DNA from: an uncultured Dehalococcoidales bacterium
GTDB taxonomy: Bacteria; Chloroflexota; Dehalococcoidia; Dehalococcoidales; UBA5760
DNA length: 64,000 bases
Direction: 5' to 3'
Assembly: GCA_964472625.1 (NCBI GenBank)
Contig: CAYYLM010000002.1
Span: forward strand, 9,366 to 73,365
The position numbers and the translations under genes are program-made. The notes under the pieces are model-generated. The model was not told the origin of the DNA. It ran no database searches and saw only the letters and a list, made by a program, of their open reading frames with translations. Position 1 is the stretch's first letter, and each line of letters opens with the position of its first letter. Of the stretch, positions 40,791 through 56,646 are shown one piece after another.

Positions 40791-41087
40791 GTGGAGATGC
40801 CGAGTCACGAAGAGATTAACCCTATGTTGACGACGAGTGAGGTGGCTCGTCTGCTTAATGTGCATATCAATACGGTAAGGCGGTGGAGTAATCAGGGAGT
40901 ACTAAAGACATACCGTATCGGCACGCGTGGTGATCGCCGGTTTCACCGTGAAGATATCGCCACTTTCCTTTCGCAGAAGTCGAAGATGGCCAATCTAGAT
41001 ACTGAGATGGAAATCCCCTCCCTATCAGACCAATCGTCAGGAAGTCGCCAGAACCTACCAGCGTCGGTAGCCTATGACCGTAAGTAA
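40791..41087 (+). CDS. Excisionase/MerR-like HTH (HTH_17, BldC-like) DNA-binding protein
   Basis: LTTSEVARLLNVHINTVRRWSNQGVLKTYRIG.RGDRRF. Confidence 0.85.
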   Translation: MEMPSHEEINPMLTTSEVARLLNVHINTVRRWSNQGVLKTYRIGTRGDRRFHREDIATFLSQKSKMANLDTEMEIPSLSDQSSGSRQNLPASVAYDRK

Positions 41088-41110
41088 TATCTATATGTGA
41101 GGGTGAGCAA

Positions 41111-41791
41111 ATGAACAAAATCGTGGTAATGATAATTGATGAGGAAGCATTCTTTAGAGCTGGCGTGCGTCAGGCACTTGCTCAACAGACTGACTTCGAG
41201 GTATTGGATTGTGATCCGTCTGATAGCCCATTAGATATGATTGACGCTAGTCTTCCCAATATTGCCCTGCTCGGCTCAGCCCTCGGTGCCCACAGTGGAC
41301 TAGAATTGGGAAGAAAAATCGCCCGCTATTACCCCAATACCAAGGTAATAATGCTGAGTCCCAATCCTGATGATGAAGAGCTCTTTGAGGTTATCAAGAC
41401 AGCGGCCGTAGCCTGCTTAAACAGGAATACCGCTGCTGATGAGCTCGCTAACACGATAAGGCGGGCATCTCAGGGTGAATACCCAATAAATGAGAGCCTT
41501 ATGACAAGACCCAAGGTCGCCCAGCGGGTGTTAAAGCAATTTGAAGATATCTCATCGATGGGTAGGGCGATCGAAACAGTAATTGCACCCCTCACCCGTC
41601 GTGAGACGCAGATTCTGGACTACGTTGCTGAAGGCAATACAAATAAGCAAATTGCTGATATCTTGGGGATTAGTGAGCAAACGATTAAGAGCCATGTCAG
41701 TGCTATCCTTCGCAAGCTGAATGCTAATGATAGGGCTCATGCTGTTGCCCTAGCCATTCGTAATGGTTGGATTTCACCAGGTGAGAAATAG
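41111..41791 (+). CDS. NarL/LuxR-family response regulator with atypical receiver
   Basis: LTRRETQILDYVAEGNTNKQIA..LGISEQTIKSHV LuxR HTH; phosphoacceptor Asp replaced (IALLGS). Confidence 0.88.
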   Translation: MNKIVVMIIDEEAFFRAGVRQALAQQTDFEVLDCDPSDSPLDMIDASLPNIALLGSALGAHSGLELGRKIARYYPNTKVIMLSPNPDDEELFEVIKTAAVACLNRNTAADELANTIRRASQGEYPINESLMTRPKVAQRVLKQFEDISSMGRAIETVIAPLTRRETQILDYVAEGNTNKQIADILGISEQTIKSHVSAILRKLNANDRAHAVALAIRNGWISPGEK

Positions 41792-41874
41792 TGAGGGGAT
41801 ATAGCAGCAGGATTTCAAGGGGACATAAAGGGTAGTTTTAGGGGCGTTTAGTCCTGTCGGTCTAAAATTGAGAA

Positions 41875-44283
41875 ATGGCTAATCTGAGTAAAGAGAAGGT
41901 TGCGAGTAAGAATGATGAGTTTGATTCTCGCCAGTCAGTAAAGCTTAATGCCTTTGAGTCACTAGGAGGGGGAGGCAAAGTGCCACAATTGGAGATTGAC
42001 CTTAAACTAAGTGACCAGATTTGGGAATATCTGCGCAAGCAGGGTTACAAGGTAACCGAGGGGGCAAGGCTCGTCGGCAAGTCGGGGGTTGAGCATACCT
42101 TTGACATGCTGGCGCAGAGGGATGACGGTTTTATCAGCTACACTATGGCGATATGCATTGCGGCTGGGGGAGATAAGGAAGCAGAGGTACAAACTATTTT
42201 CAACTTCGCCAACAAGGCCTATGATACTGGTATTATTGACCGGGTGCTTATTGCTGTCCCGGAGATTAGTCCTGAGGCGAAGCAACTGGCTGGTAAACAG
42301 CGGATAAAGGTTATTGAAGCCGAAAAGATGGGGGCTTTGCTTGACACTAAGCCTGTGGCGCAGCTTAAGCCTGGGGAGCCACTTAGGTTTGAGACACAAG
42401 CAGAGCTGGTGAAATCTTTGCTGAGTCGGGGTTACCAGGTCGAGGAAAAGGCTAAGGTTAAGAGCCGATCTGGGGTTGAGTATAGCTTTGACATACTGGC
42501 TTATGTTGATATGGATGGGGCTAATCACAGCCTAGGTATCGACTTTCTGAGTGCGGAGAAGGAAGTAGGTTTGGATCAGGTATCCATATTTGATACTAAA
42601 GCCTACGAGGTTGGCATTGATGATAAAGTCATTGTTGTCTCGCCGGTGCTTAGCCTGGAAGCGAAGCAGTTTGCCCAGCATCAGCGAATAAGGGTTTTCG
42701 AAGTGGGCGCAAAGCCAGCTTCCAAGGATTCAACGTCAGCAGAGGAAGCAACTAAACCTGATTCGGCTAAGGTTAAAACGAGACAGCTACGGCAGATGGT
42801 TCAGGCTGAGGCATTACAAATGATACCCGAGGTGATGGCAAGAAGGTATAATGCCGTACCACTAACTCTCTCGGGTAACACGCTGAAGGTTGCTATGGCC
42901 GACCCGACCGATATCTTTGCTCTGGAGGCTTTCTCTGCCCAGAGTAAAAAGAGGATTCAACCGATAGGCGCCAGTGCTAAGGAAGTCAGGGAGGCTATTG
43001 ACTTTAACTACAAAGGCCATAGCGAGATCGAGAAGCAGATTGCTCATATCTCTATCCCGGCCGATGCCCTTGATGAAAGGCTGGCCATTGATGCGGCTAT
43101 TGATGCCCCTCTGGCTCAGGCTCTTAACCTTATTGTTGAGGAAGCGGTGAGAGCACACTCATCTGATATTCACATTGAACCCGAGGAGGATAGGGTGAGG
43201 GTACGCTACCGCATTGATGGTACCCTTCAGGATATGATGTCTCTACCGGTGACGGTGCATCGTGCTGTTATTTCTCGAATTAAGATTTTGGCTGATATGA
43301 ATATTGCTGACCACCATCGTCCTCAGGATGGACAGTTTTCTACTAAAGCCAAGGGGCGAGAGATAGATGTTCGTGTCGCTACCGCACCTACCGTCTTCGG
43401 TGAGATGGCGGTGCTGCGGCTTCTTGACAAAGCTCGGGCTACTTTGGGGTTATCGGAACTTGGTTTCTTGCCAGATAGCCAGGCCAAGTACGAAAGTTTG
43501 CTCAAGGTACCCTATGGTATGCTCTTGATCAGTGGTCCCACCGGAGCCGGGAAAACCACCACCTTATACGCTTCCATTAATTCCCTTGATACCATGGGGC
43601 GGAACATAATTACGATTGAAGACCCGGCCGAGTATCGGTTTAAGGATATTAATCAGATTCAGGTTAATTCTCAGGCTGGCATTACCTTTGCCCGAGGACT
43701 GCGGTCGATACTCCGTCTTGACCCCGATGTTATCATGGTCGGCGAAATACGTGATGTTGAGACAACTCAAATCGCAGTTCAGTCAGCTTTGACTGGGCAC
43801 CTGATGCTTACCTCCATCCACGCTAGTGATGCGGCTGGTGTACTCACCCGTCTCATTGACCTCGGAGTTGAGCCGTTCTTGATCGCTTCCTCCGTTATTG
43901 GTGTTGTCGCTCAGCGGATGGTGCGTCGCATTTGCCCGGATTGCGGCCACCCTATTGAGGCACCCCTGGTGGAAAGACTGGCTTATGAAAAGGAGATGGG
44001 GGAGGAAAAGACCGAGTTTTTATACGGTACCGGTTGTGCTACCTGTGCCTATACTGGTTATGTGGGCCGAACCGGAATCTTTGAGATTCTGGTGGTGAGT
44101 GATGGCATCCGAGCTCTGGTTACTAATCGAGCTAATAGCAATGAGATTCGTTCTCTGGCGTTTGAGGAGGGGATGAGGGCAATGATGAATGATGGTATGC
44201 GCAAGGTGCAAAGCGGGATTACTACCCCGTCTGAAGTGCTGCGCAGTGCCTACTCCCCCGACCTTAGGCCTGAAGCAAAATAG
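41875..44283 (+). CDS. pilB: Type IV pilus extension ATPase PilB/GspE with two N-terminal restriction-endonuclease-like repeats
   Basis: GSPII_N region, GPTGAGKTT, TIEDPAEY, LRLDPDVIMVGEIRD, HLMLTSIH, CPDC..GCATC Zn motif. GTG 41980 is an alternative start with a GGAGG site. Confidence 0.9.
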   Translation: MANLSKEKVASKNDEFDSRQSVKLNAFESLGGGGKVPQLEIDLKLSDQIWEYLRKQGYKVTEGARLVGKSGVEHTFDMLAQRDDGFISYTMAICIAAGGDKEAEVQTIFNFANKAYDTGIIDRVLIAVPEISPEAKQLAGKQRIKVIEAEKMGALLDTKPVAQLKPGEPLRFETQAELVKSLLSRGYQVEEKAKVKSRSGVEYSFDILAYVDMDGANHSLGIDFLSAEKEVGLDQVSIFDTKAYEVGIDDKVIVVSPVLSLEAKQFAQHQRIRVFEVGAKPASKDSTSAEEATKPDSAKVKTRQLRQMVQAEALQMIPEVMARRYNAVPLTLSGNTLKVAMADPTDIFALEAFSAQSKKRIQPIGASAKEVREAIDFNYKGHSEIEKQIAHISIPADALDERLAIDAAIDAPLAQALNLIVEEAVRAHSSDIHIEPEEDRVRVRYRIDGTLQDMMSLPVTVHRAVISRIKILADMNIADHHRPQDGQFSTKAKGREIDVRVATAPTVFGEMAVLRLLDKARATLGLSELGFLPDSQAKYESLLKVPYGMLLISGPTGAGKTTTLYASINSLDTMGRNIITIEDPAEYRFKDINQIQVNSQAGITFARGLRSILRLDPDVIMVGEIRDVETTQIAVQSALTGHLMLTSIHASDAAGVLTRLIDLGVEPFLIASSVIGVVAQRMVRRICPDCGHPIEAPLVERLAYEKEMGEEKTEFLYGTGCATCAYTGYVGRTGIFEILVVSDGIRALVTNRANSNEIRSLAFEEGMRAMMNDGMRKVQSGITTPSEVLRSAYSPDLRPEAK

Positions 44284-44292
44284 AGGTGAAAT

Positions 44293-45501
44293 ATGGAGTA
44301 TTCTTATGTAGCGTATACCAGGGATAAAAAATTAGTGAAGGGCAAGCTCTCGGCGACCAACCAAGAGGCAGCAGCTGGTGTGTTGAGCTACGGTGGCTAC
44401 CAGGTGCTTAGCCTTAAGCAGGTGGTTCCCTTCTTTGATACGGGAAAGCTGGGCACCAGTTTCTCCCGGGTAAAGCCGACAGAAATCATAATGTTCTCCC
44501 GCCAGCTGGCTTTACTACTTGAAGCTGGCACTGATATTGTTACCGCTTTGGAGTTATTACAGAACCAGACAACTAGCCATACCCTGAAGAGGGTGATTGC
44601 TGAGGTGGTCGCTGACATCCGTGCTGGTAGCTCGCTGTCAAAGGCGCTAAGTAAGCACCCGCGGGCTTTCTCGCAACTTTACCACCGGGCAATATCGGCT
44701 GGTGAGCAGGGTGGTAATCTGGAGGAGACACTTAGGCAGATGGCAAATCATATCGAGAGGGCCACCGTCACGGAAAAGAAGATAAAAGGAGCCCTGCGCT
44801 ACCCCATTATTGTTTTTATCATTGCGATTGTTGTGGTTGGGATATTAGTTAAATTTGTTCTGCCCCGTTTTATCCTTCTGTACGCCGCGTTTGGGAGTGA
44901 GTTGCCGACACTGCCGAGGATGCTTATCGGGTTTACCAATTGGTTTGATCAGTATGGCCTCTGGCTGGTGCTGGGGGTAGTCGCTGCCATTGGCATAACC
45001 TTTGCTTATATCAAAACCCCAGCGGGCAAAATCTGGTGGCATAGAACGCTGCTTAATCTGCCGGTATTTGGGCGTATTAACCTCCTGAATCAGCTGTCAC
45101 GCTGCTGTCGCACCATAGCGCTACTATTTAAGGTTGGCGTACCGCTACCGGAGATTATGGCGGTAGCCATTTATGGCACCACCAATAATATTGTGGCTCA
45201 GGAGTTGACTGAGGTGCAACAGGAGTTGCTTAAGGGTGAGGGCTTATCCCGTCCTATGGGCAGGCGGAAGCTGTTTCTGCCCCTGATGGTGCAGATGACC
45301 GGGGTCGGTGAGGAAACCGGTAACCTCGATAAAACACTAACTACGGTAGCGCAGGCCTATGAGGCTGAGGCTGAGGACAAGACCAGCGCGGCGGTAGCTA
45401 TGATCCAGCCAATGATGACGATGGTTATTGGTGGCATTGTTGCCTTTATTGCAATCGCTCTGGTGCAGGCTATGTATTCTGTCTACGGGAACTTCGGTTA
45501 A
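44293..45501 (+). CDS. pilC: Type IV pilus/T2SS platform protein PilC/GspF
   Basis: FSRQLALLLEAG, AGEQGGNLE, GEETGNLD, IQPMM. Confidence 0.92.
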   Translation: MEYSYVAYTRDKKLVKGKLSATNQEAAAGVLSYGGYQVLSLKQVVPFFDTGKLGTSFSRVKPTEIIMFSRQLALLLEAGTDIVTALELLQNQTTSHTLKRVIAEVVADIRAGSSLSKALSKHPRAFSQLYHRAISAGEQGGNLEETLRQMANHIERATVTEKKIKGALRYPIIVFIIAIVVVGILVKFVLPRFILLYAAFGSELPTLPRMLIGFTNWFDQYGLWLVLGVVAAIGITFAYIKTPAGKIWWHRTLLNLPVFGRINLLNQLSRCCRTIALLFKVGVPLPEIMAVAIYGTTNNIVAQELTEVQQELLKGEGLSRPMGRRKLFLPLMVQMTGVGEETGNLDKTLTTVAQAYEAEAEDKTSAAVAMIQPMMTMVIGGIVAFIAIALVQAMYSVYGNFG

Positions 45502-45514
45502 GGGGGACTAAGGG

Positions 45515-45874
45515 GTGATGAAAGGTGAAAAGGGGTTTTCCTTTATTGAGGTAGTAATTGCCCTGGCGATACTGGGTATAATTGCGGTTGGCTTTCTTGG
45601 TGGTTTAGGTACTGCCTCAAGGGGTCTCCTCACTGCCGATGAGCGAGAGACGGCTAATAACCTGGCCGAAGCTCAGATGGAGTATGTGAAAAACCTGCCT
45701 TACAGCGTTGCCTACTCGAAGTCAACGGCAATCCTTGGTGAATATGAATATTATGATGTTGAGATAGTTACCACCTCCCTGGAGGATGGAAATATTCAGA
45801 AAATAGAGGTGACGGTAAGTCATCAGGATAAACCAGAGGTAATTACTCTGGCGGATTACAAGGTGAACCGATGA
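45515..45874 (+). CDS. Minor pilin (PilV/GspI-like)
   Basis: Class III signal KG|FSFIEVVIALAILG. Confidence 0.85.
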   Translation: MMKGEKGFSFIEVVIALAILGIIAVGFLGGLGTASRGLLTADERETANNLAEAQMEYVKNLPYSVAYSKSTAILGEYEYYDVEIVTTSLEDGNIQKIEVTVSHQDKPEVITLADYKVNR

Positions 45875-46407
45875 TACTTAAAAAATTAGGCTACATAAAT
45901 AAAAAGCAGCGGGGCTTTACCCTGCTCGAGCTGATAATAGCCCTAGCTATTACCGGTGCTATCACTGGTGGACTAGCCACGAGTATCTTTCAGACGCTTG
46001 ACTACAGCGCCCGGGACAATATGCGCATGGTGGCTGTCAAGCAGGTGGAGAACGCCATCCACTACATTAACCGTGATGTCCAGATGGCTCAGATTATAGA
46101 GCCGACTGAAGACGCAGATGGTTTCCCCTTGGTCCTGACCTGGGTAGAGTGGGACGTGGACAATACCGAGCATGTGGTTACGTATAGCATAGTGGGTAAC
46201 GAGCTACAGCGTAGTCATTCCGAGGATGGTGGTACACCGACTGAACTTACACTGGCACAGCATATTGATACGGACTCGGATGACACTTATTGTGACTTTG
46301 ACGAAGATCTCTGGATATTTACCTTTAGAATAACCGTTACCGTAAGCGGCTATCCGGAAGATATAAGTGAGATGAGAGAAGTGAGGATTACTCCCAGAAC
46401 TTCATAA
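45871..46407 (+). CDS. Minor pilin (PilW/GspJ-like)
   Basis: RG|FTLLELIIALAITG; 4-nt overlap with the previous gene. Confidence 0.85.
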   Translation: MILKKLGYINKKQRGFTLLELIIALAITGAITGGLATSIFQTLDYSARDNMRMVAVKQVENAIHYINRDVQMAQIIEPTEDADGFPLVLTWVEWDVDNTEHVVTYSIVGNELQRSHSEDGGTPTELTLAQHIDTDSDDTYCDFDEDLWIFTFRITVTVSGYPEDISEMREVRITPRTS

Positions 46408-46423: not shown

Positions 46424-49234
46424 ATGATTAGAAGGATAACAGTTTTACTGCGTAGCGCCAAAAGGGAAGAGGCGGGACAGGCTTTCATCTTGGTTCTAAT
46501 CCTGCTGTTGGTGGGTGGTCTCATCATTGCGCCACTGCTAGCCTTTATGGGTACCGGCCTCCAGAGTGGTCAGGTTTTCGAACAGAAGACGAGTGAGTTA
46601 TATGCCGCTGATGCCGGCATCGAGGATGGTATTTGGCAGGTGCAGTTTGATGAACTCGAGTCACTCAGTAGCCCCACGGTCTATAGCGTGTATGACTACA
46701 GCACGGTGTGGGATTTCCAGCTGGATGAGCAGGTAAACGAAGAGGACGTGACGGGCACCATTGAGAATGTCTGGATTCCCAAGGATTTGGCAGCGCCCGG
46801 TGAGGCTCAGGCGGAGGATATTATTGAGGGGGTTGATGGTAAACCCCCCAAAGCGGTAGTAACCGGCACTGTTCCCGACACAGAAGAATATAAAATCAAG
46901 ATAACCTATAATAAGGAACAAGAGGACGTCTATCAATACGGTGATGAATTCGTAATAGAAGAGATCGGGATATGGCTACCGCCCGGGTTTGAATATGTAG
47001 TTGGCTCCAGTAACCTCGAGGCTGACTCCTTCGCTGATTATTATTCGGTGCCGGTAGTCTCAGATCACTCCGGGGGACAGGCGGTCATCTGGAGCTTCAG
47101 CTCAGTTCCTATGTCTGTTTTCCCGGGTGTGAATCCGTCGGACATGCCCATGGTGACTCAGGTCACCTTCCAGTTTACGGCGCGCCGGGAGGGAAGTAAC
47201 CCCGAAGCCCTGTCCTGGGTAGATACCAATATGAACTTGAGTGGCAGTATTAGTTATGCCTGGGATGCCGACACCAAGGTTTATAAGATTACCTCTCAAG
47301 CTGGCGATACCAACCTTGAAGCCCATACCGCCAAGACCGAGCTACGCGAGGTCGGTGGGGCGATAGCGGGAGACTACCGTGCCATCGGCAACACCCTGAT
47401 GACCAACGAATACGGCGGTTCGACTCCGGTGGTGCGGGATACTCTGCTGGCTGAGAGCGATGCTACTGTCAGTGATATCCCCGACAGCGCCGAGATCCAG
47501 GCGGCTTATCTCTACTGGTCAGCCTGGCTGGAAGAGGAGCTGGAGCAAGAGTCTGGTGACACGACGGTATTCGAAGACGACTGTTCCAACTTCAGTAATT
47601 GGAATAATCCGGGTAATGATTGGGTAATCTCCAGTGGCACTTTCCGGGGGCATCATTATGGCAGTGCCCAGTATAGATTCCTGACCCTGCAGTCAAGCCT
47701 AGACCTGAGCTCATATTCAGGTAAACTGACGACCGTTTACTGGCAGCAGTGGGAATATGGTACCCTGGAGAGTAATGACTACCTCTGGCTTGCCTTTTCC
47801 GGTGATGGCGGCAGCAGCTGGAGCAGCAATATTGTGGCCTTCAGCAATGATATCGGGAGCACGCCGCAGGATTTCAGCTACACCATTCCGGATGAGTATC
47901 TCACCGCTAACTTCAAGATGAGACTTCAAATAGGTGACGATAATGGCTGGGTTGGCGGTGGCGAGTACTGCTTTGTCGATAACATTGGTATCTCGGTATC
48001 CAATGCCATACTTTATGATGACTGTTCTGACTTCGTAGCTGGCCCTATTAATTGGACTAACGGTAGCCACTGGACAATCTACAACGGTGATGAATTTAGG
48101 GGGCAGGGTGGGGGCAGTACCGCCGATAGGCGTCTCACCATGACCGACAGCCTGGATTTAAGTGCCTACTCCGACAAGACGATTGTCGTCTCCTGGGAGC
48201 AACGTGAGAGCGGGTACCTAGAGTCCAGCGACTATCTCTACTTTGCCTTCTCCGGCAATGGTGGCAGCAGCTGGAGCAGTAATATTCAGGCCTTCCGTGA
48301 TGATATCGGGAGCACACCACAGGAGTTCAGCTACACCATTCCAGAGCAGTATCTTACCGCCAACTTTAAGATGAGGTTTTACCTCTACTTCAACTATTAT
48401 AATGAGTACGCCTATGTTAACAATATTACTATCTATGAAACCTCAGGGGACGCCTGGGCCGATGCCACGGCTATCTTCAAGATAGATGGCACCCAGGTTT
48501 ACTTTGATGAATATGGAGTCCCTCAGACGGGTGGGGAGGAAATAGTTGCTTCGGAGTGGACAATCCTGGAAAATCAGACCGGCGAGTATTCCTATGCCTG
48601 CTTCTTGGACGTGACCGACCTGGTGCAGGCGTTTAGTGCTGAGGGTGATGATGGCAATCACCCCGGTAACGGCGCCTATACCGTCGGGGGAGTGTATGGG
48701 GATACCGACGATGAGTGGTCCTATGCCGCCTGGTCGCTGATACTTGTCTACGCCAGCGCGGAGACGTATGGTCACCAGCTCTATCTCTACGATGACTTTG
48801 TCTACTCGAGTATGGACGTCAATGTTGATTTTAATGGTGACGGGCAACCGGGTGGTCGAATCAGTGGCTTTCTGGTTCCAGAACAGATTGAAGGCGAGGG
48901 CGACGATGCCGATGCCGCTACGATGACCTGCTTTGTCGGTGAGGGAGATGATTACTATAACTACGACTATTTTAGGTTCGAGGGAACCAACCTCTCCGAC
49001 GGTAGGAGCTCTAATGATGTCTGGAACTCATGGTCGGTTGGGCTGGTAGAGGACGGCATTGATATTGACACCTTCCATGTTACCTGGGGGAGTGGCCTGC
49101 TGGAGGCTGGGGATACCTCGGCTCAGATAGACCTGCCTACCCAGACTGATTCCTGGAACCTAGTGTATATCATCCTTTCTTTCCGCAGCGAGGTCGTCGC
49201 TGGGGGCACTATTAGCTACTTGATAAAAAGTTAG
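46424..49234 (+). CDS. Large PilX/GspK-like tip pilin-adhesin with tandem internal beta-sandwich domains
   Basis: EAG|QAFILVLILLLVGG prepilin lacking Glu5, AADAGIEDG PilX motif, very acidic, two internal repeats. Confidence 0.75.
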   Translation: MIRRITVLLRSAKREEAGQAFILVLILLLVGGLIIAPLLAFMGTGLQSGQVFEQKTSELYAADAGIEDGIWQVQFDELESLSSPTVYSVYDYSTVWDFQLDEQVNEEDVTGTIENVWIPKDLAAPGEAQAEDIIEGVDGKPPKAVVTGTVPDTEEYKIKITYNKEQEDVYQYGDEFVIEEIGIWLPPGFEYVVGSSNLEADSFADYYSVPVVSDHSGGQAVIWSFSSVPMSVFPGVNPSDMPMVTQVTFQFTARREGSNPEALSWVDTNMNLSGSISYAWDADTKVYKITSQAGDTNLEAHTAKTELREVGGAIAGDYRAIGNTLMTNEYGGSTPVVRDTLLAESDATVSDIPDSAEIQAAYLYWSAWLEEELEQESGDTTVFEDDCSNFSNWNNPGNDWVISSGTFRGHHYGSAQYRFLTLQSSLDLSSYSGKLTTVYWQQWEYGTLESNDYLWLAFSGDGGSSWSSNIVAFSNDIGSTPQDFSYTIPDEYLTANFKMRLQIGDDNGWVGGGEYCFVDNIGISVSNAILYDDCSDFVAGPINWTNGSHWTIYNGDEFRGQGGGSTADRRLTMTDSLDLSAYSDKTIVVSWEQRESGYLESSDYLYFAFSGNGGSSWSSNIQAFRDDIGSTPQEFSYTIPEQYLTANFKMRFYLYFNYYNEYAYVNNITIYETSGDAWADATAIFKIDGTQVYFDEYGVPQTGGEEIVASEWTILENQTGEYSYACFLDVTDLVQAFSAEGDDGNHPGNGAYTVGGVYGDTDDEWSYAAWSLILVYASAETYGHQLYLYDDFVYSSMDVNVDFNGDGQPGGRISGFLVPEQIEGEGDDADAATMTCFVGEGDDYYNYDYFRFEGTNLSDGRSSNDVWNSWSVGLVEDGIDIDTFHVTWGSGLLEAGDTSAQIDLPTQTDSWNLVYIILSFRSEVVAGGTISYLIKS
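47567..48438 (+). repeat. Two ~145-codon tandem repeats inside the adhesin gene (47567-47995 and 48011-48438)
   Basis: Shared DDCS.F...SLDLS.YS.K...LES.DYL..AFSG.GGSSWSSNI.AF..DIGSTPQ.FSYTIP..YLTANFKMR; nucleotide similarity is visible at 47791-47920 vs 48245-48374. Confidence 0.85.
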
Positions 49235-49263: not shown

Positions 49264-49887
49264 ATGAAATTTGGTAAGGTAGCTCAATTAGCTCTGGCGA
49301 TTGGCATTTTCGCCATCGCGCTTATCTTCCTCTACCGCATGAACCAGGGGCGGGCGGCCGAGCATGAACAGCTCAGTGCCCAGCTGGATGTGGCCCAGCA
49401 ACTGCTGCCCCAGCTCGTTTCTGAAAGTGAGGATTTGGAAAGCCGCCTTAACCAGCTGCAAGCTGAGCTGGATCAGGCTAATGCCTCGCTTAGTGAGGGT
49501 AAAGCAAGGTTTCCCCTCTCCATAGATGGCATTAGGTACGACGAGTTATTATGCCAGATGGCTCATGACCGTGACCTGGAGGTAATGAGACTGGTCACTT
49601 CGGAGCCAACCGAGCGAAAAGTGGAAGAGGTTACCTATACCATCAGCTCTTTTGATCTGGAAGTGATGGGTCAGGTGGCTGACATCCTCGATTTCGTTAA
49701 TGCCATAGCCATCGGTGAAGACTTTACCACGGCTACCGTGGAGCTGGTGGATATTAAGGTTCCTGAGCCGATAACCATGCAAGAGGAGGAGGCGTTAGCT
49801 GGGCAAGAGCAGGAAGAGGAGGAAGAGGAACCAGAGGCGCCATCAGCTGTTATTAAAGTGAATATCTATAGCTACAAAGGGGATTAG
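49264..49887 (+). CDS. PilO-like alignment protein
   Basis: N-terminal TM, coiled coil, ferredoxin-like C-domain; position in the pil operon. Confidence 0.65.
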   Translation: MKFGKVAQLALAIGIFAIALIFLYRMNQGRAAEHEQLSAQLDVAQQLLPQLVSESEDLESRLNQLQAELDQANASLSEGKARFPLSIDGIRYDELLCQMAHDRDLEVMRLVTSEPTERKVEEVTYTISSFDLEVMGQVADILDFVNAIAIGEDFTTATVELVDIKVPEPITMQEEEALAGQEQEEEEEEPEAPSAVIKVNIYSYKGD

Positions 49888-49889: not shown

Positions 49890-51431
49890 ATGGCCGAAGT
49901 TACTCTATTTATTGAAGATAGTGCTGTCAAGCTACTGGTAGCCAGAGGCCGGCGGGTAGAAAAATGGGCGAAGCTACCGCTGGAGCCGGGGCTGGTTAGC
50001 GATGGCTTGATCCTTGATGAAGCCAAGGTAGCCGATAAGATTCGTGAGCTCTTTAAGCTACAAAAGGTAGGGGCAAGAACGGTAGTGGCTGGTTTAAGCG
50101 GATTCAATTCGGTTTATCGTTTGATTTCGCTACCTGAGCTACCGGAGGCAATCCTTCCCGAGGCGGTAGAGCAGGAGGCAAGTCGAGTGATACCGGTGCC
50201 CCGGGACCAGGTCTACCTGTCGTATCAGTTGATGCCTACCTCGGCTGCGGAGACATTAATCTTCTTGGCGGCTTTTCCTCGCAACACCACCGACGCTCTG
50301 CTCCGGACGCTGCAGAAGGCTGGGCTGAGGGCCGATGTTTTGGACTTAGCTCCTTTAGCTCTGTGTCGCACTGTTGATGCTCCGGAGGCGATAGTTGTCG
50401 ACGTCAGTTCAGCCAGCCTTGATATTGCCATTATATTGGAAAGGATACCTCAGGTAATTCGTAGCCTCTCTCTTCCCGGTGAGGCACAGTCGCTGGCGGA
50501 ACGGCTGACGACTATTGTTGAGGAGCTTAATCGAACTATTGCCTTCTATAACTCCAGTCATCGTGATAAGCAGTTAGCAACCTCAGTACCTATATTTGTC
50601 TCTGGTGACCTGGCTCAAGCGCCGGACACCTGGCAGTCGCTCAGCGGTACGGAGGGCTATCCTACCTCAGCCTTACCATCGCCGATGGAGCCAATCGAGG
50701 GATTTGACCCGAGTCAATTCATGGTCAATATTGGGCTGGCGCTCAAGCAGCTACCTCTTGAGAAAGAAGCAGCTAACTTCTCGATAGTAAACTTCAATGC
50801 TCTACCACACGCAGAGAAGCCCAAGAAGAAGGTATCTCCAGCCAGCATTCTTCTGCCCATTATTATTGTCCTGGGCTGTGGCGGGGTTTTCTATATGTTT
50901 AACCTTGGCCGGAATGCTGAGGCTGGTAATGAGCTTTTACGTGCCCAGTTGGAGCTTACCCAGAGCCAAATTCCTGAGCAGCAGGCGGTAAAGACAGGGC
51001 TTGAGGAGCAGCTTGCCGAGCTAGAACCCCAGATTGAGCCCGTAAAGGCTGAAGCTGACATCTTTAATACTACCTTTGCCGACGTGCAGGAGGGGCGCAA
51101 CCGGATTGACCAGGAGGTGACTCAGATTGCGCATCTGGTGCCGGAGGAGGTAGCTTTAGTTTATGGTGGTGATGAGATAATGGGGTATGATGCACCTATA
51201 TGTGAAGCTAGCATTAAGCATACCGGTGATGAAGTAACAGTAGTCGGCAGGAGCCAAGACCTAGACGCCATCTTTAAGTATGCTAGAGGTTTAAGAGCTA
51301 GTGGTGGCTTCTCCGAGGTCATTATCTCATCTATTGAAGCTTATGAAGTTGTAGTATCGGAAGAGGGTGAGGAGGAGGAAGAAGAGGAAGTAATTAGGGG
51401 GTATAACTTCCAGTTTACCCTGCTACAGTAG
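49890..51431 (+). CDS. pilM: PilM-PilN fusion protein
   Basis: Actin-like PilM domain (EQEASRVIP, LDLAPLAL), TM, coiled coil, PilN-like C-domain (VVGRS...YARGL..SGGFSEV). Confidence 0.75.
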   Translation: MAEVTLFIEDSAVKLLVARGRRVEKWAKLPLEPGLVSDGLILDEAKVADKIRELFKLQKVGARTVVAGLSGFNSVYRLISLPELPEAILPEAVEQEASRVIPVPRDQVYLSYQLMPTSAAETLIFLAAFPRNTTDALLRTLQKAGLRADVLDLAPLALCRTVDAPEAIVVDVSSASLDIAIILERIPQVIRSLSLPGEAQSLAERLTTIVEELNRTIAFYNSSHRDKQLATSVPIFVSGDLAQAPDTWQSLSGTEGYPTSALPSPMEPIEGFDPSQFMVNIGLALKQLPLEKEAANFSIVNFNALPHAEKPKKKVSPASILLPIIIVLGCGGVFYMFNLGRNAEAGNELLRAQLELTQSQIPEQQAVKTGLEEQLAELEPQIEPVKAEADIFNTTFADVQEGRNRIDQEVTQIAHLVPEEVALVYGGDEIMGYDAPICEASIKHTGDEVTVVGRSQDLDAIFKYARGLRASGGFSEVIISSIEAYEVVVSEEGEEEEEEEVIRGYNFQFTLLQ

Positions 51432-51447: not shown

Positions 51448-52518
51448 ATGGATATTTTTTCCTTGCTTCGTGAAGCAGCATCAAAGGGGGCCTCAGACCT
51501 ACATATGGTCGTCTCTAGCCCGCCCTTACTGCGCGTGAATGGTCTGCTTGAGGCGGTAAACGGCACCAAGCTACTAACTGCCAATGAGATAAACCAGGCG
51601 TTTCTTCAGATAACTACCCCTGAGCAAAGAGAAAGCTTCCATCACCATCTGGAGCTTGATTTTAACTATTCCCTGTCTGAGGTTGGGCAGCTTCGTTGCA
51701 ATGCCGCTCAGCAGCGCGGGGCAATCAGCCTTGCCGTGCGTCTGTTGCCGGCGGAGGTTCCGACTATAGATGAGCTGGAGCTGCCGGCAATATATAAAGA
51801 GCTTGCCATGAAACAGAGGGGTTTGATCGTAGTTACCGGTCCTACCGGCAGTGGTAAATCCACCTCACAGGCGGCCATGATTCAGCATTTGAATGAAAAT
51901 GAGAGCCGTCATGTGGTTACTATTGAGGACCCCATTGAGTATGTCCATCCCAGTATTAAGTGTGCCATAACCCAGCGTCAGCTGGGCAGTGACACTCTCT
52001 CCTTCGCTGAGGCGCTAAGGCGGGTCCTAAGGCAGGACCCAGATGTGATTCTGGTCGGCGAGATGAGAGACCTGGACACTGCGGCTGCGGTACTGTCTAT
52101 CGCTGAGACCGGGCATTTGATACTGACCACCGGTCATGCGCCCAGTGCCAGCCAGGCGGTGGAGAGGGTGATAGACCTGTTTCCGCCTCACGAGCGTCCT
52201 TTGGCTCAAACGCGGTTGGCGTCTCTGCTGGTAGCGGTGCTTTTTCAGACGCTCGTCCCCAGGATTGACGGCTCGGGGAGAATAGCGGCTACTGAGATTC
52301 TGCTGGCTAATGCGGCGGCACGTAACCTTATCCGGGAAGGCAAAACCTATCAGCTGCCCAATGTAATCCGCACTAGCCGGGAAATCGGTATGGTTTCGCT
52401 TGATGAGGCGCTGGTTAACCTTTACTTAAAACGCATCATAAGCTATGAAGCCGTGCTTACTTTCTGCTGGGATCGCAAGGAAGTGGAAAAGCTCACTGGT
52501 AGCGTGGGTATAAAGTAG
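51448..52518 (+). CDS. pilT: Type IV pilus retraction ATPase PilT
   Basis: GASDLH, GPTGSGKST, TIEDPIEY, LRQDPDVILVGEMRD, AARNLIREGK (AIRNLIRE-like). Confidence 0.92.
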   Translation: MDIFSLLREAASKGASDLHMVVSSPPLLRVNGLLEAVNGTKLLTANEINQAFLQITTPEQRESFHHHLELDFNYSLSEVGQLRCNAAQQRGAISLAVRLLPAEVPTIDELELPAIYKELAMKQRGLIVVTGPTGSGKSTSQAAMIQHLNENESRHVVTIEDPIEYVHPSIKCAITQRQLGSDTLSFAEALRRVLRQDPDVILVGEMRDLDTAAAVLSIAETGHLILTTGHAPSASQAVERVIDLFPPHERPLAQTRLASLLVAVLFQTLVPRIDGSGRIAATEILLANAAARNLIREGKTYQLPNVIRTSREIGMVSLDEALVNLYLKRIISYEAVLTFCWDRKEVEKLTGSVGIK

Positions 52519-52564: not shown

Positions 52565-52596
52565 TAAGAGAGGGGCATTAAGCCCCTCTTAATCTT
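52565..52596. terminator. Terminator between convergent pilT and pilin genes
   Basis: AGAGGGGC-ATTAA-GCCCCTCT stem. Confidence 0.65.
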
Positions 52597-52826
52597 TCGC
52601 TTACCTAACTGGTATTATTCCTCCCACAGTTGTGGTTCTCATCAAATTGCCCTCGGCTGCTGTCACTGATTCTGGCGAGAGACAACATCATAAAACAGGA
52701 AAGCCCGCCGGCAGCTTGGAGGTGAACCTTCTGTCGACGAGCTTTTAGGAAGCAAGCTTCACTTTTGATAATTGGTCTTAGGCTGCTAGATTAGCAGTTT
52801 GTGTCTCAGTTTTGTTAATCTGGTTA

Positions 52827-53228
52827 CTAATAACCGTCGTCGGTCTGGGTGACTACGCCTTCTGTGGTAACATTATAGGTGCCGACCAGTATTTCGTTAC
52901 CGCCCATGATAAAGGTGCCTACATCTGAAGTACCAACAACCACATCTGAATCAGCATCTAGCTCGCCACCTGCTGTAGTGGAGACTCCTTCGGAAGCCAT
53001 GGCGGCAATCACCGCGGTCTGGACGTTGGCTAATTCTGTGGCTGCCGCCTCTGATTCGCCCTCATCCATGAAGCCAGCGATATTGGGGATGGCGACCGCA
53101 GCCAGCACGCCCAGGATGGCGACCACCACAAGCAGTTCAATCAGGGTGAAACCCTTCTGCCCGCGGCGGAACTTCCTAGCAAACCTCTTCTCGCCGTAGT
53201 GAAGCCTTCTCATTAGTGTCTTCATCAT
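52827..53228 (-). CDS. pilA: Major type IVa pilin
   Basis: KG|FTLIELLVVVAILGVLAAVAIP; start at ATG 53228 after AAGGAGGTG; own promoter. Confidence 0.88.
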   Translation of the reverse strand: MMKTLMRRLHYGEKRFARKFRRGQKGFTLIELLVVVAILGVLAAVAIPNIAGFMDEGESEAAATELANVQTAVIAAMASEGVSTTAGGELDADSDVVVGTSDVGTFIMGGNEILVGTYNVTTEGVVTQTDDGY

Positions 53229-53293
53229 TTGTTGTTTCACCTCCTTTCTCAAATTTATGATGAAGCTTAAGTGATTTCTAGTGACTTAAGTCC

Positions 53294-53321
53294 AGTTTAG
53301 CATAGCTACCGGCACAGTCAA
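53294..53321 (-). promoter_or_regulatory. Pilin promoter
   Basis: TTGACT-16 bp-TAAACT with extended TGn. Confidence 0.6.
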
Positions 53322-53355
53322 TCACGCAATAGTAATAGTAAGATGGTATGAGTTC

Positions 53356-53484
53356 ACGGGGTATTCCGTCTGGCTTTCCCCTTGCGGGCGGTGGGAGGAA
53401 GCTAGAGAGTGAGCTATGCCTTGCTTATGCTCACCCGTTAGTATCATCGTCGTGTTTCCGCCGGCATCCGGGTTTTGCCCTCGT
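53356..53484. ncRNA. Candidate structured non-coding RNA, 6S-like long hairpin with central bubble
   Basis: Nested helices GGC/GCC, CCC/GGG, TGC/GCA, GGCGG/CCGCC, an unpaired central bubble, then GGGTGAGC/GCTCACTC; strand uncertain. Confidence 0.4.
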
Positions 53485-53491
53485 TAAGGTT

Positions 53492-53519
53492 AAAAAAGAA
53501 GGGGCGTTAACCCCTTCTT
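53492..53519 (-). terminator. Rho-independent terminator of the 53553-54920 gene
   Basis: AAGAAGGGG/CCCCTTCTT stem with a U-tract on the minus strand. Confidence 0.75.
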
Positions 53520-53552
53520 AACTCTGTGGTGATAGCTAGAGGTAATAGATGC

Positions 53553-54920
53553 CTAGCCAGGTGAGTCTAGCTTCTCGACTTCAAAGGCCTTGATACGTTG
53601 CCTTTCCACAAACTGTTTAGCCTCCTGGCTGAGCCCAGGGGAGGCAATGAAAACCTTGTCCTGAATACCGGTATCATAGGCCTTATCATCAAAATCAAAC
53701 ACCTTGTCCAGTTCTACCGGTTTGTCGCTTGCCTCAATGCCGATGGCAATGCGGTGGGTAACGATGCCGTCATCCCTGATAGCCAGAATATCTATATTGT
53801 GTTCGGCACCAGACCGGCCCTTAACCGCAGTATTTTTCTTGACCTCATAGGCATGTCGCTTCAGGTGTTCTATTAGCTGAGAAATGGACTTGAATTCAAA
53901 TGGCTCCTTCTCTGTTTCTACCGCCAGTGATGGGGTAGCTCTGGCCAGTACTGTCTTCAGATCCTCAAGCGGCAGCACCTTAATCCTCTGGTGACTGGCA
54001 AACGTAGCTGCTTCCTTGTCTAACGGCGGGTCAACAAGCAAGACCTTCTCATGAACGCCAGTGTCGTAGGCTTTGTCATCAAATTCAAATACGTCTCGCA
54101 GAGAGACTATATCCCCAGCGACTTTAATCCCGATGGCAATATCATAAGTTATGATGCCATTTTCCCTGGTTGCCAGGATATCAAAACTATGTTCGGCACC
54201 CGACCGACCCTTTTTAGTGGCATTTTCACTAACCTCAAAACCGCGCTGTTTCAGAAACTCGGTGAGCTGGGCTTTAGGCTTGAGCTCAAACTCCAGCCAA
54301 CTTCTTTTGGCTTCATCAAGGCTGTAGGAATAGACGTTTACCTCGGCGACTTTATCCTCGCTGGTGATCGAGGAACATTTCAGGCAGCGCCATTTCATTA
54401 TCGGTGCGGGGAAAACGTCACCGCAGACATGACACTTGTGCATTAGACCTTGGCTCCGATAGTCGCTTTCGAGCTTTCTTAGCTCCGATTTGCACTTAGG
54501 ACATATGAGTCTCCCTTGAGTTGCAAACTCGTCTTCAAGCCCGACATATCCGCAGATAGAGTGTTCTAGGACCCGGCCGCGAGCAATGTTGCCGGAACCA
54601 CACTTGGGGCAGTGGGTGGTTGGTCTCAGATTCACTGACTGGCACTGAGGACAGTGGAGAAACCGGTCAAAGAAGTCCTTATTGAGAATACCCTTACTAG
54701 CCAGGGACTCCAGAACTGATACCGCTTCTTGCCCCGTGATCTCCAGTGTTTCTTCGACGAAGGGATAGGTAAAGCCCATGTCGCTGGTGAAATCAAGCTC
54801 GGGTTTAATATCAGTAACGTTCTCCGCCAGCATTTTCGTCACCAGTTTGGTGATTTTTTCATCGCCTATTAGACTGGGGAGAGCGTTGGCTGGTTCTGGA
54901 GCTTCACTATCTTCCGCCAT
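53553..54920 (-). CDS. Multi-Zn-ribbon (TackOD1-like) protein with two C-terminal restriction-endonuclease-like repeats
   Basis: CPQC, CPKC, H..CG, CPKC, CHVC and CLKC motifs; two GRSGAEH.(F/I)DILA...FDDKAYDTG...QRIK repeats homologous to the PilB N-terminus. Confidence 0.75.
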   Translation of the reverse strand: MAEDSEAPEPANALPSLIGDEKITKLVTKMLAENVTDIKPELDFTSDMGFTYPFVEETLEITGQEAVSVLESLASKGILNKDFFDRFLHCPQCQSVNLRPTTHCPKCGSGNIARGRVLEHSICGYVGLEDEFATQGRLICPKCKSELRKLESDYRSQGLMHKCHVCGDVFPAPIMKWRCLKCSSITSEDKVAEVNVYSYSLDEAKRSWLEFELKPKAQLTEFLKQRGFEVSENATKKGRSGAEHSFDILATRENGIITYDIAIGIKVAGDIVSLRDVFEFDDKAYDTGVHEKVLLVDPPLDKEAATFASHQRIKVLPLEDLKTVLARATPSLAVETEKEPFEFKSISQLIEHLKRHAYEVKKNTAVKGRSGAEHNIDILAIRDDGIVTHRIAIGIEASDKPVELDKVFDFDDKAYDTGIQDKVFIASPGLSQEAKQFVERQRIKAFEVEKLDSPG

Positions 54921-55037
54921 TTTCTGCCTTCACCAATTTTGGACTTGCGAGCAAAGTATACCGTTGTCACTCACTAAAATCAATAATCCTTTTCCCTATT
55001 GACTAGATCCTGAAAAGCATCCAAAATAGAGACTGAA

Positions 55038-55835
55038 GTGGAAGGTGCCCTGATCGCCATATTTACCATACTGGGGATGGTCATCGCTAGTTTCCTTAAT
55101 GTCGTGATTGACCGCTTGCCCCAGAATGAGTCGATTGTTTCTCCTCCCTCTCATTGTCCTTCTTGTCAGCGTCGCCTGGCTGCCAAAGACCTGATCCCCG
55201 TTTTTAGCTACCTGTGGCTGCGCGGTCGCTGTCGTTATTGCCGGGCTCCAATTCCTCGGCGGATATTGGGGATGGAGATTACAATCGGGGCGCTACTGCC
55301 GCTTCTCTACTGGCACTATGGTTTGAGTGCGGCACTGGGGATTATGGCTTTCTATTGCTGCCTGTTCATTATGCTCCTGGTGATTGATTGGGAGAAAGGG
55401 CTTATCCTCAACCGGCTGGTATACCCCAGCATGATAGTCGCGGTACTGTTTAGTATCTTCTTGGCCGGGAGGGTAGATGTTTTCGTGCTGGGGGGCAGAA
55501 TTGTGCAGCTGCCGCCTGGAATCGCTGACGCGGCAATCGGAGGCGCGATTGGCTTCGGGCTGGCCTTGTTGGTGGTGCTGCTTTCCAGAGGCGGTATGGG
55601 TTTTGGTGATGTCAAGATGGCGGCCCTGATTGGGCTGGTGGTCGGTTTTCCCGTCGTGTTTTTTACGCTAATTATGGCGGCAATTTTAGGTGGTGTGGTA
55701 GCGGCAATTCTGCTCCTCTTAAAGAAAAAGAAGCGGAAAGAGGCGATCCCCTTCGGTCCGTCGCTTTCGGTAGCTACTATAGTTACCCTGATATGGGGTG
55801 CCGACATCCTCATCTGGTGGCTGGGGCTGTTCTAA
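55038..55835 (+). CDS. pilD: Prepilin peptidase/N-methyltransferase
   Basis: ASFLNVVIDRLP, SHCPSC, GRCRYC, VID, GMGFGDVK, IPFGP. Confidence 0.93.
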   Translation: MEGALIAIFTILGMVIASFLNVVIDRLPQNESIVSPPSHCPSCQRRLAAKDLIPVFSYLWLRGRCRYCRAPIPRRILGMEITIGALLPLLYWHYGLSAALGIMAFYCCLFIMLLVIDWEKGLILNRLVYPSMIVAVLFSIFLAGRVDVFVLGGRIVQLPPGIADAAIGGAIGFGLALLVVLLSRGGMGFGDVKMAALIGLVVGFPVVFFTLIMAAILGGVVAAILLLLKKKKRKEAIPFGPSLSVATIVTLIWGADILIWWLGLF

Positions 55836-55913
55836 GCCCCAATCTCTAACCGTCCCACCACAGTAAGATTGCCTGCCTTCAGCTTTGGTCTCAAGGAAAG
55901 TGGCCTCAGGGTA

Positions 55914-55967
55914 TTGACATTTACCATCTGGCGAATTATAGTGTATATAATTAGTACTATAGTACTA
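55914..55967 (+). promoter_or_regulatory. Consensus promoter with perfect 16-bp palindromic operator
   Basis: TTGACA(55914)-17 bp-TATAGT(55937); TAGTACTATAGTACTA at 55952-55967. Confidence 0.75.
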
Positions 55968-55998
55968 GGGCGAAAGTTGTAACTAGCAGGTAATTAGG

Positions 55999-56262
55999 AT
56001 GGAACGCCGAAGGTCAAGCATTCAAGTAATAGCCGACATATTGAGGCTGGGTGAAGCGGGTAAGACCGAGATTATGTATAGCGCCAACATGAGCTTCTTC
56101 CAGCTGAAGAAGTATCTCAACTTCCTGCTTGAACTGAGACTGATAGACAAGGTGACGGTAGGGAATCCCACGGTTACCTACCGGGTGACCCGGAAAGGTC
56201 TTAGGTTGCTCAAGAGCATAGACACCGTCCTAGAGATGCTCGAGTTAAAGGAAGCTGATTGA
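55999..56262 (+). CDS. Winged-helix transcriptional regulator (archaeal-type HTH_45-like)
   Basis: RRRS..QVIADIL...KTEIMYSANMS..QLKKYL..L...YRVTRKG. Confidence 0.8.
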   Translation: MERRRSSIQVIADILRLGEAGKTEIMYSANMSFFQLKKYLNFLLELRLIDKVTVGNPTVTYRVTRKGLRLLKSIDTVLEMLELKEAD

Positions 56263-56283
56263 GCTTAGAGAAAGGGTAGTTGT

Positions 56284-56646
56284 ATGGCTGAGAAAAGAAT
56301 GCTGATAGTATCGGCTGAGTTGGTGAGGCGGATCGATGAAAATCGCGGTGATATGAGCCAGGCTGAGTTTATCGATTTTCTGATTGACAGTCAGCTAGAG
56401 GAGACCCAGACTAAGACTAAAGAGGAAGCAAAATATGTCACCGAAGAACAGTTTCGTTCTCTAGAACAGGATATAAAGAAGCTCCTCCGGAGCTTTCTTG
56501 ATTTTTTCGTCAGCTATGGCCTTGAACTGGGTAAGCAGGCTCCCCAATCTGAGTTTGAGGAACTTGCCAGCCGGCTGCAGGGACTGGAGAAGGAACTGGA
56601 AGCCGACGGCGGCGGAAAAGGTAAGGCTACCATAAAGTGGAAGTAG
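56284..56646 (+). CDS. Hypothetical protein with ribbon-helix-helix-like N-terminus
   Basis: MLIVSAELVRRIDENRGDMSQAEFIDFLID resembles CopG-type RHH; coiled-coil tail. Confidence 0.6.
   Translation: MAEKRMLIVSAELVRRIDENRGDMSQAEFIDFLIDSQLEETQTKTKEEAKYVTEEQFRSLEQDIKKLLRSFLDFFVSYGLELGKQAPQSEFEELASRLQGLEKELEADGGGKGKATIKWK

Follow-up and report, generated by a model that had tools for sequence, protein, structure and literature searches.

What does a pair of degenerate nuclease-fold domains do when it is carried both by the extension motor of a type IV pilus and by a zinc-ribbon protein encoded in the same cluster? We addressed this question in a 64,000-nt stretch of DNA from an uncultured Dehalococcoidales bacterium (contig CAYYLM010000002.1; hereafter, the window), whose open reading frame (ORF) calls were scanned with Pfam and NCBIfam. 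The pilus cluster at positions 40791–56646 is chromosomal and type IVa-like, and its host is a monoderm member of the Dehalococcoidia (Chloroflexota). The genes named in a preliminary description of this DNA were all recovered in place, among them the two at issue here: an 802-aa PilB-type assembly ATPase with the repeat pair at its N terminus (41875..44283, + strand; Pfam T2SSE, E = 1e-127) and a 455-aa Zn-ribbon protein with the pair at its C terminus (53553..54920, − strand; Pfam TackOD1 and Mrr_cat).

Two Paralogous Repeat Pairs in One Pilus Locus

Four repeats of ~118 aa are split two and two between these proteins. A repeat hidden Markov model (HMM) places the first pair within PilB residues 39–285, as repeat 1 (aa 39–158; 41989..42348, + strand; E = 9e-51) and repeat 2 (aa 168–285; 42376..42729, + strand; E = 2e-47). 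The second pair spans residues 209–454 of the Zn-ribbon protein, again as repeat 1 (aa 209–327; 53940..54296, − strand; E = 4e-49) and repeat 2 (aa 339–454; 53559..53906, − strand; E = 1e-51). When PilB residues 1–300 were compared with the Zn-ribbon protein by BLASTP, a single collinear alignment ran across both repeats with 42% identity over 241 columns (E = 2e-60), which bears out the proposal that the motor ATPase and the Zn-ribbon protein share homologous repeats. Single repeats are 33–45% identical in pairwise comparison, with 21 invariant columns (n = 4). The observation is confirmed and goes far past any chance resemblance, and the data support the two pairs as true paralogues of one inactive restriction endonuclease (REase)-fold domain.

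The preliminary description had also remarked on similar linkers between the repeats. The likeness is real, but what was taken for a linker is the conserved segment with which each repeat begins: LEIDLK.., EPLRFE.., LEFELK.., or EPFEFK.. in the four copies. Two further motifs mark the family. G[KR]SGxEHxxD(I/L)LA, which contains the ancestral PD-Asp, is nearly invariant across the four repeat classes, and its core, G[KR]SGxEHxxD, is recognizable in the sequences of archaeal copies fused to KaiC; a second motif, FDxKAYDxG, is family-specific.

A Restriction-Endonuclease Fold Without Its Catalytic Motif

AlphaFold2 (AF2) models of the Zn-ribbon protein (built on 70 homologues) and of PilB 1–354 (built on 46) are both confident, with predicted local distance difference test (pLDDT) scores of 87 and 82. 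Each repeat forms an α-β-β-β-α-β-α-β unit, and most of the PilB repeat 1 block lies at pLDDT 88–97. Both models contain the restriction-endonuclease core fold and find their best PDB match in AF1548, an Mrr-like protein (1Y88; Foldseek E = 7e-6 and 5e-6), followed by Can2, Cdn1, VC1899, MspJI, NucS/EndoMS, and Rpb5. Family profiles agree: Pfam Mrr_cat matches the second repeat of the Zn-ribbon protein (aa 350–451; E = 7e-12, 46 bits against a cutoff of 21), relatives carry precomputed Mrr_cat and NA-iREase1 matches on the PilB N terminus, and some relatives match the Pfam NA-iREase1 "inactive REase" model in precomputed or direct searches. Sequence searches of the PDB with profiles of 4 and of 47 repeats returned nothing beyond AF1548, the only meaningful match of the 47-sequence profile (E = 0.011).

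In profile alignments, the invariant Asp of the family (FDiLA) coincides with the catalytic Asp of AF1548, whereas the E-C-K of AF1548, its ExK motif, is aligned with A-I-G, A-I-C, or G-I-D; (E/Q)xK is thus lost in all four repeats. Measured against Mrr-type nucleases, the core fold is present and the catalytic Asp is kept, and the (D/E/Q)xK expected on the next strand is absent. A degenerate nuclease fold had been suspected, and both the AF2 models and the loss of ExK in four of four repeats support it. Judged by their sequences, the repeat domains are probably enzymatically inactive.

The repeats share with AF1548, Mrr_cat, and NA-iREase1 a core α-β-β-β-α-β fold and a G[RK]SG...D motif with the PD-Asp. 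They differ in carrying small or acidic residues in place of (E/Q)xK, in always occurring in tandem in PilB and in the Dehalococcoidia Zn-ribbon protein, and in having the FDxKAYDxG motif of their own. Their setting differs as well: pilus and polysaccharide machinery, as opposed to restriction or NACHT defense.

A TackOD1 Protein Carries the Second Pair

The Zn-ribbon protein belongs to the TackOD1 family (PF18551; E = 4e-42, 144.2 bits against a cutoff of 32). Its TackOD1 domain (aa 20–201; 54318..54863, − strand) has five CxxC motifs and one HxxC (at aa 90, 104, 120, 140, 163, and 179), with 11 conserved Cys in all; these Cys/His residues are invariant across 70 homologues, and their pattern agrees with the one described for the family (Galperin et al. 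2018, PMC5847659). A set of 5.8 billion proteins yielded 1271 homologues at E ≤ 1e-3. Nearly all of the top 120 are full length, and the few named sources are all Dehalococcoidia/Chloroflexi metagenome-assembled genomes (MAGs).

TackOD1 owes its definition to archaeal response regulators, of which it is an output domain (PMC5847659); as arCOG06883, it is already on record for type IV pilus loci of archaea (Makarova, Koonin & Albers 2016, PMC4858521; PMC5847659), with a function described as obscure (PMC5847659). To call the locus a candidate new system was therefore an overstatement. The window protein and its archaeal relatives share PF18551, the CxxC/HxxC pattern, and the association with type IV pili, and members with an N-terminal receiver (REC) domain exist; the window protein differs in being bacterial (Dehalococcoidia) and in having no REC domain. 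Its two C-terminal inactive REase-fold domains are not mentioned in PMC4858521 or PMC5847659. The reference protein AFS80801, a REC-TackOD1 protein of 318 aa, leaves no room for a repeat. Many archaeal entries in the table of Galperin et al. (PMC5847659) measure 303–336 aa and are given no architecture; by length, they may correspond to the proteins with TackOD1 and one repeat recovered here.

A literature search with limited coverage of subscription journals, and hence no proof of novelty, found no paper on a REase-fold domain of PilB or TackOD1 proteins. The control layer of this pilus, in which an inactive Mrr-like pair is common to the extension motor and the TackOD1 protein, appears to be a conserved, undescribed variant. 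A pilus-linked protein listed since 2016–2018 without a function has many members with an unannotated inactive restriction-enzyme domain, and the same domain pair sits within the extension motor across a bacterial class, while in sister lineages it is encoded beside a motor that lacks it.

The Link to the Pilus Locus Is Conserved Across Dehalococcoidia

A single-repeat profile searched against 1.84 billion representatives matched 686 proteins, 153 of them at E ≤ 1e-10. Architectures were taken from the best 150 of the 686: 44 have TackOD1 followed by C-terminal repeat(s), 11 have a PilB core preceded by N-terminal repeats, and the rest are mostly short metagenomic fragments. Among these best matches, the expectation that the repeat lies almost only N-terminal to PilB cores or C-terminal to TackOD1 is borne out. 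Its stricter form, that the repeat occurs in these two proteins alone and always together, fails: repeats are also found on psRR-family regulators (relatives of the pseudo-receiver regulator encoded next to PilB, psRR), on a KaiC-like ATPase, and on a helical protein, and two loci lack the TackOD1 gene at its usual place.

Genomes were scanned at one per species (185,579 genomes), which gave 151 confirmed stretches, of which the best 80, with PilB matches ranked first, were kept as loci; synteny was read from six-frame ORFs of these, searched with the window proteins. All 80 are labeled Chloroflexota/Dehalococcoidia except three MAGs with other labels. At least 68 are long-PilB loci (about 765–830 aa where complete) from uncultured Dehalococcoidia, with both repeats and conserved synteny. 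Among the 60 loci that extend far enough 5′ of the long PilB, psRR is the immediately preceding gene in 50. Two layouts occur: the window type, in which a surface TIG protein, a 123-aa protein, and an HTH_17 protein precede psRR and PilB, and a second in which GH3, 120-aa, and HTH_45 genes lie divergently upstream of psRR-PilB. PilD is divergent from the TackOD1 gene in 8 of 10 regulator-centered loci, followed by pilin(s), PilT, and PilMN where the contig continues, and a pilin follows it in five of the 10; four of the other five are short contigs or belong to the short-PilB arrangement described in the next section. Five times, not counting the window, one assembly yielded both a long PilB and a TackOD1 protein, and both genes share an assembly or contig in every regulator-centered locus with enough coverage. 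These data support a functional tie of the repeat pairs to the pilus locus, and a link conserved across a bacterial class rather than a one-off.

Several candidates were set aside. Two stand-alone di-repeat proteins (P0294 and P0161) had looked like a further architecture; in context, they prove to be PilB genes that are split or frameshifted, one of which has no pil locus around it. P0206 (1433 aa, 16 stretches) is a low-complexity false positive, and P0292, a repeat with a C-terminal HTH_17 domain on a 1.7-kb contig, was not used as evidence. Separately, one locus (L084, 10001–12307) has a 243-aa repeat-pair ORF and a 426-aa T2SSE ORF ~300 nt apart, beside Ku and LigD and with no other pil genes; it is probably a broken orphan copy of a long PilB. 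In another, otherwise syntenic locus (L082, 13387–14081), a HicA/HicB toxin–antitoxin pair stands between the pilin genes and pilT.

The Repeat Pair Alternates Between Cis and Trans

Three independent Chloroflexota loci (L074, L083, and L086) show a different distribution of the same parts. Each has a 453–460 aa TackOD1-repeat-repeat gene 3–36 nt upstream of a 518–525 aa PilB; this short PilB begins at the N1E domain, without repeats, and no other repeats were found in the 20-kb loci. The long PilB of the window amounts to repeat pair, tether, and short PilB, with the tether formed by about 27 disordered residues (aa 279–305; pLDDT < 50 in the AF2 model) between the pair and the N1E domain. 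In a rough neighbor-joining tree, repeat 2 of the three loci groups with PilB repeat 2. This alternation between cis and trans, an argument of the Rosetta-stone type, suggests that the repeat pair of the TackOD1 protein works together with the PilB motor and is the best evidence for that link.

Fusions elsewhere point the same way. Two psRR-family members from other organisms (P0189 and P0201; 32% identity to the window psRR, E = 7e-32, without the acceptor Asp) bear one C-terminal repeat, and a KaiC-like ATPase from Thermoplasmatales archaeon MAGs (P0270) has two repeats at its N terminus.

The motor itself has intact Walker A (at 554) and Walker B (at 616) boxes and the tetra-Cys Zn site (at 687), and it matches NCBIfam type_IV_pilB at E = 2e-152, under the equivalog cutoff. 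Regulation of PilB-family ATPases is known through MshEN, which responds to cyclic di-GMP (c-di-GMP), and through FimX-PilZ-PilB. As in those systems, an extra module N-terminal to N1E and the ATPase core would couple a signal to assembly, and a separate regulator is encoded in the same cluster. Unlike MshEN, the PilB module of the window is an inactive REase-fold pair and not a four-helix domain, and, unlike both known systems, the presumed regulator carries the same module as the motor. The Pfam MshEN match in PilB covers the N1E-like part only (aa 309–380), and a regular-expression search for the c-di-GMP motif RLGxx(L/V/I)(L/V/I)xxG(L/V/I/F)(L/V/I)xxxxLxxxLxxQ found neither a strict nor a relaxed match in PilB. 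With the binding motif absent, we rejected c-di-GMP control via MshEN as an account of this motor. In the archaellum, the KaiC-like protein ArlH docks on ArlI, a PilB-family hexameric ATPase. The present case is similar in that an accessory protein would dock on a PilB-family ATPase and in the repeat pair at the N terminus of the Thermoplasmatales KaiC-like protein; it differs in that the window locus has no KaiC-like gene and the link consists of one fusion architecture.

Candidate Roles of the Repeat Pair

The reading we tentatively favor, at a little under an even chance, is that the inactive REase (iREase) pair is a motor-directed docking or assembly module that can be supplied in cis or in trans. 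It would act through protein–protein contacts and belong functionally to the PilB motor. In some Chloroflexota, it would be provided in trans by the TackOD1-iREase protein encoded 3–36 nt upstream of the short PilB; in the lineage of the window, PilB would have captured a repeat pair of its own in cis. The free TackOD1-iREase protein could then co-assemble with the PilB-borne pair or compete with it for the same partner site, candidates for which are the PilB core and the PilC/PilM platform. Input to TackOD1 would by this route be passed directly to pilus extension, post-translationally, and in other members TackOD1 would be wired to a phosphorylatable REC domain. From an anatomy that is well supported, we infer this mechanism, including physical contact and the direction of control.

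A number of observations weigh against such a docking module. The polar motif G[KR]SGxEHxxD, including the ancestral active-site Asp, is kept even in distant members and would suit a pocket for a ligand or nucleic acid no less well than a docking surface. Repeat pairs from PilB and the TackOD1 protein of the same genome are 38–43% identical, vs. 36–48% across genomes (six genomes); same-genome identity shows no excess, so nothing points to concerted evolution or to an obviously matched interface, and we discarded both. The predicted template modeling scores of the two AF2 models (pTM 0.66–0.67) suggest that the two repeats of each protein pack together as one rigid body, so that the usual REase dimer face may already be occupied within the chain. 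Two loci (L063 and L068) have a long PilB and lack a TackOD1 gene together with PilD at the usual place. Finally, the pair occurs beside other machinery. Many TackOD1-repeat proteins have an N-terminal REC domain that, in a rough alignment, keeps the acceptor Asp and the conserved Lys. In two contigs with usable context (P0131/L088 and P0149), such a REC-TackOD1-repeat-repeat gene lies directly upstream of a family 2 (GT2) chitin/cellulose-synthase-like glycosyltransferase and sugar-nucleotide enzymes, with no pil genes nearby; an epimerase follows GT2 in both, in L088 after a UDP-glucose dehydrogenase, and in L088 (7916–16290) a GAF histidine kinase and an OmpR-type regulator precede the REC-TackOD1-repeat gene. 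On a third contig (P0152; JGI 3300075153), whose context looks archaeal, a protein with the repeat pair and a helical C terminus is divergent from AglB/STT3 and sugar-nucleotide enzymes. The GT2- and AglB-adjacent contexts imply that the pair has a function that does not need PilB.

Docking of like with like had been put forward as the way in which the regulator is coupled to PilB. As a general mechanism this does not hold, because repeats occur beyond pili and beyond the two proteins, as in the REC-TackOD1-repeat genes beside GT2, and, in the three short-PilB loci, beside a PilB that has none.

An alternative that we consider unlikely, if worth keeping in view, is that the pair is a sensor of a shared ligand: it would retain a remnant of the Mrr active-site pocket and bind a phosphate-bearing small ligand or nucleic acid. 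The signal would then be sensed separately by PilB, by the TackOD1 protein and, in some organisms, by psRR, with no contact between them, and pilin supply, motor activity, and, elsewhere, polysaccharide synthesis would respond together. The near-invariance of G[KR]SGxEHxxD(I/L)LA with its PD-Asp in four repeat classes is what such a pocket would look like, the GT2-synthase and AglB contexts suit a generic sensor, and the lack of same-genome covariation between the two pairs is in keeping with proteins that do not meet. That motif is, however, largely inherited from active Mrr-type enzymes, as the E. coli Mrr motif illustrates, and may be structural; to our knowledge, no inactive Mrr_cat domain is known to bind a ligand; and a common ligand leaves unexplained why, in three loci, the TackOD1-iREase gene lies 3–36 nt upstream of a short PilB. 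Less likely again is a transcription factor. Here, the TackOD1 protein would bind DNA and regulate the pilin gene next to it or the pil operon (in other organisms, the GT2 operon), and the iREase pair would serve it only for oligomerization or DNA contact; PilB would have captured its copy independently and put it to another use, such as hexamer assembly. Gene order agrees: in window-type loci the TackOD1 gene immediately precedes the major pilin gene(s), and in the short-PilB and GT2 loci it immediately precedes a target-like operon. REC-containing members resemble classical response regulators in that a rough alignment shows the acceptor Asp and Lys retained. Zn-ribbons often bind nucleic acids, and there is a weak profile match to the MCM N-terminal Zn region (E = 0.007). 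As weak evidence for separate transcription units, a terminator-like hairpin stands directly 3′ of the TackOD1 gene, and the pilin gene is preceded by a promoter-like site. Yet TackOD1 matches no recognized DNA-binding family in Pfam or NCBIfam and has a function described as obscure (PMC5847659), the locus already has four dedicated helix-turn-helix (HTH) proteins, and capture of the same di-domain by a motor ATPase, a KaiC-like ATPase, and another regulator is hard to explain by DNA binding alone.

A nuclease, defense, or DNA-uptake gate, in which entering DNA or the nucleic acid of phages would be bound or cut by the repeats and the pilus shut down, had also been suggested and seems to us very improbable. 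It draws on the Mrr-type restriction-enzyme fold and on a Foldseek list that includes Can2, Cdn1, MspJI, and NucS; the PD-Asp is kept, and a conserved D-D-K in the next helix could in principle provide a migrated catalytic Lys. Against this, neither the four repeats nor orthologues retain the canonical (E/Q)xK, relatives match the NA-iREase1 inactive model, and the same module adjoins polysaccharide synthases. PADLOC gave no significant match for the TackOD1 protein, the PilB N terminus, the 120-aa protein, or a 936-aa protein of the locus, on which ground we dropped a defense link, and the ORF scans, within the locus and elsewhere in the window, turned up neither competence nor defense genes (for competence genes, window ORFs of 140 aa or more).

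A wider version of that reading, which we regard as rather unlikely, is that TackOD1 with the inactive-REase pair forms an unrecognized, widespread output module, in Chloroflexota and several archaeal phyla, that acts directly on the machines making cell-envelope polymers, both the motors of type IV pili and processive GT2 polysaccharide synthases; its interface for docking on the hexameric ATPase would be the REase-derived pair, which the Dehalococcoidia PilB would have internalized. Such a module would be a phosphorylation- or zinc/redox-driven counterpart of the c-di-GMP control of pili and exopolysaccharide. More narrowly, the analysis yields a concrete, testable hypothesis for the partners of TackOD1 proteins, adds a type of N-terminal regulatory domain for PilB-family ATPases, and gives a further example of a dead nuclease fold reused as a signaling or assembly module. 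It does so for uncultured Dehalococcoidia, a group that abounds in sediments and aquifers and about whose surface biology next to nothing is known.

Regulators and Core Pilus Genes

The lineage-specific control layer consists of a small HTH protein, psRR, the TackOD1 protein, and an HTH_45 protein. The first, of 98 aa, is an HTH_17/excisionase-type DNA-binding protein (40791..41087, + strand; Pfam HTH_17, E = 1e-13) and is conserved upstream of psRR-PilB in the window-type layout. It scores above the cutoff for the NCBIfam excisionase domain; its proposed likeness to BldC is reasonable, in that the HTH class is confirmed and the BldC model matches at E = 1e-10, but below cutoff.

psRR, a NarL/LuxR-type regulator of 226 aa (41111..41791, + strand; Pfam Response_reg and GerE), had been called a pseudo-receiver, and rightly so. 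Its receiver fold matches above cutoff, and the Asp and Lys of a phosphorylatable REC domain are missing: in the alignment to VraR (5hev), the phospho-acceptor Asp is replaced by Gly and the conserved Lys by Arg. Gly occupies the acceptor position in 51 of 58 orthologues, which makes the pseudo-receiver state a family trait.

Downstream of PilD, an 87-aa protein (55999..56262, + strand) was recognized as an archaeal-type winged-helix protein, an assignment upheld by HTH_45 (E = 3e-21). The adjoining 120-aa protein (56284..56646, + strand) had been thought ribbon-helix-helix-like; it has no match in Pfam, NCBIfam, or the PDB, which lend that label no support. The two genes are conserved as a pair beside PilD or psRR-PilB. 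In the window, they belong to a four-gene module (55999–59123) completed by a PEMT-like membrane protein and by an adenylating ligase of the GH3 family that weakly resembles the lyso-ornithine-lipid synthetase OlsH; across Dehalococcoidia, this module adjoins PilD or is divergent from psRR-PilB.

Beneath this layer, the ORFs at 40.8–56.6 kb form a complete type IV pilus cluster whose core is an ordinary monoderm system, with PilB, PilC, a PilM-PilN fusion, PilT, PilD, and pilins. PilB is followed by the platform protein PilC (44293..45501, + strand; Pfam T2SSF in two stretches, E = 3e-57) and two minor pilins of 119 and 178 aa, both with the N_methyl motif (45515..46407, + strand). Beyond the 936-aa gene described below, a 207-aa coiled-coil membrane protein in the PilO position (49264..49887, + strand) precedes the 513-aa PilM-PilN fusion (49890..51431, + strand; Pfam PilM_2, E = 2e-17), both in conserved synteny; the PilN match of the fusion (E = 2e-4, 21.6 bits) falls just under its cutoff of 22.8. 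PilT had been named as the retraction ATPase, and the gene at 51448..52518 (+ strand) scores 404.7 bits on NCBIfam pilT_fam (cutoff 319.1), with the motif AARNLIRE at aa 290. A probable major pilin of 141 aa (52827..53252, − strand; N_methyl, E = 1.5e-10) lies next to the TackOD1 gene, from which the prepilin peptidase gene pilD is divergent (55038..55835, + strand; Pfam A24_N_bact and Peptidase_A24). The matches to T2SSF, PilM_2, A24_N_bact and Peptidase_A24, and N_methyl (three ORFs) are all above cutoff. The family search gave no secretin match in any ORF of the locus, as the preliminary description had noted.

Between the minor pilins and the PilO-position gene stands the 936-aa protein (46424..49234, + strand), which has an N-terminal hydrophobic segment and matches no family above cutoff, Reelin_subrepeat-B being the only, subthreshold, match. 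An internal tandem duplication joins aa 377–523 and 524–670 at 58% identity, and the corresponding position in related loci is taken by homologues that vary in length.

Neighboring Genes

Upstream of the cluster, at 38339–40463, are a surface protein of 569 aa, which combines IPT/TIG and Big_6 domains with a hydrophobic segment at the C terminus, and, on the opposite strand, a lysine-rich 123-aa protein; both are kept directly upstream of HTH_17-psRR-PilB in window-type loci. The remaining window is ordinary chromosome, with a 2-oxoacid dehydrogenase complex, glycosyltransferases, a thiolase, and radical-SAM enzymes. Between 22000 and 27000, GC content dips to 0.41–0.47, and a tyrosine integrase ORF (25340–26434, − strand) overlaps tRNA-Gly(ccc) (26385–26456); this stretch looks like a small element integrated at a tRNA gene.

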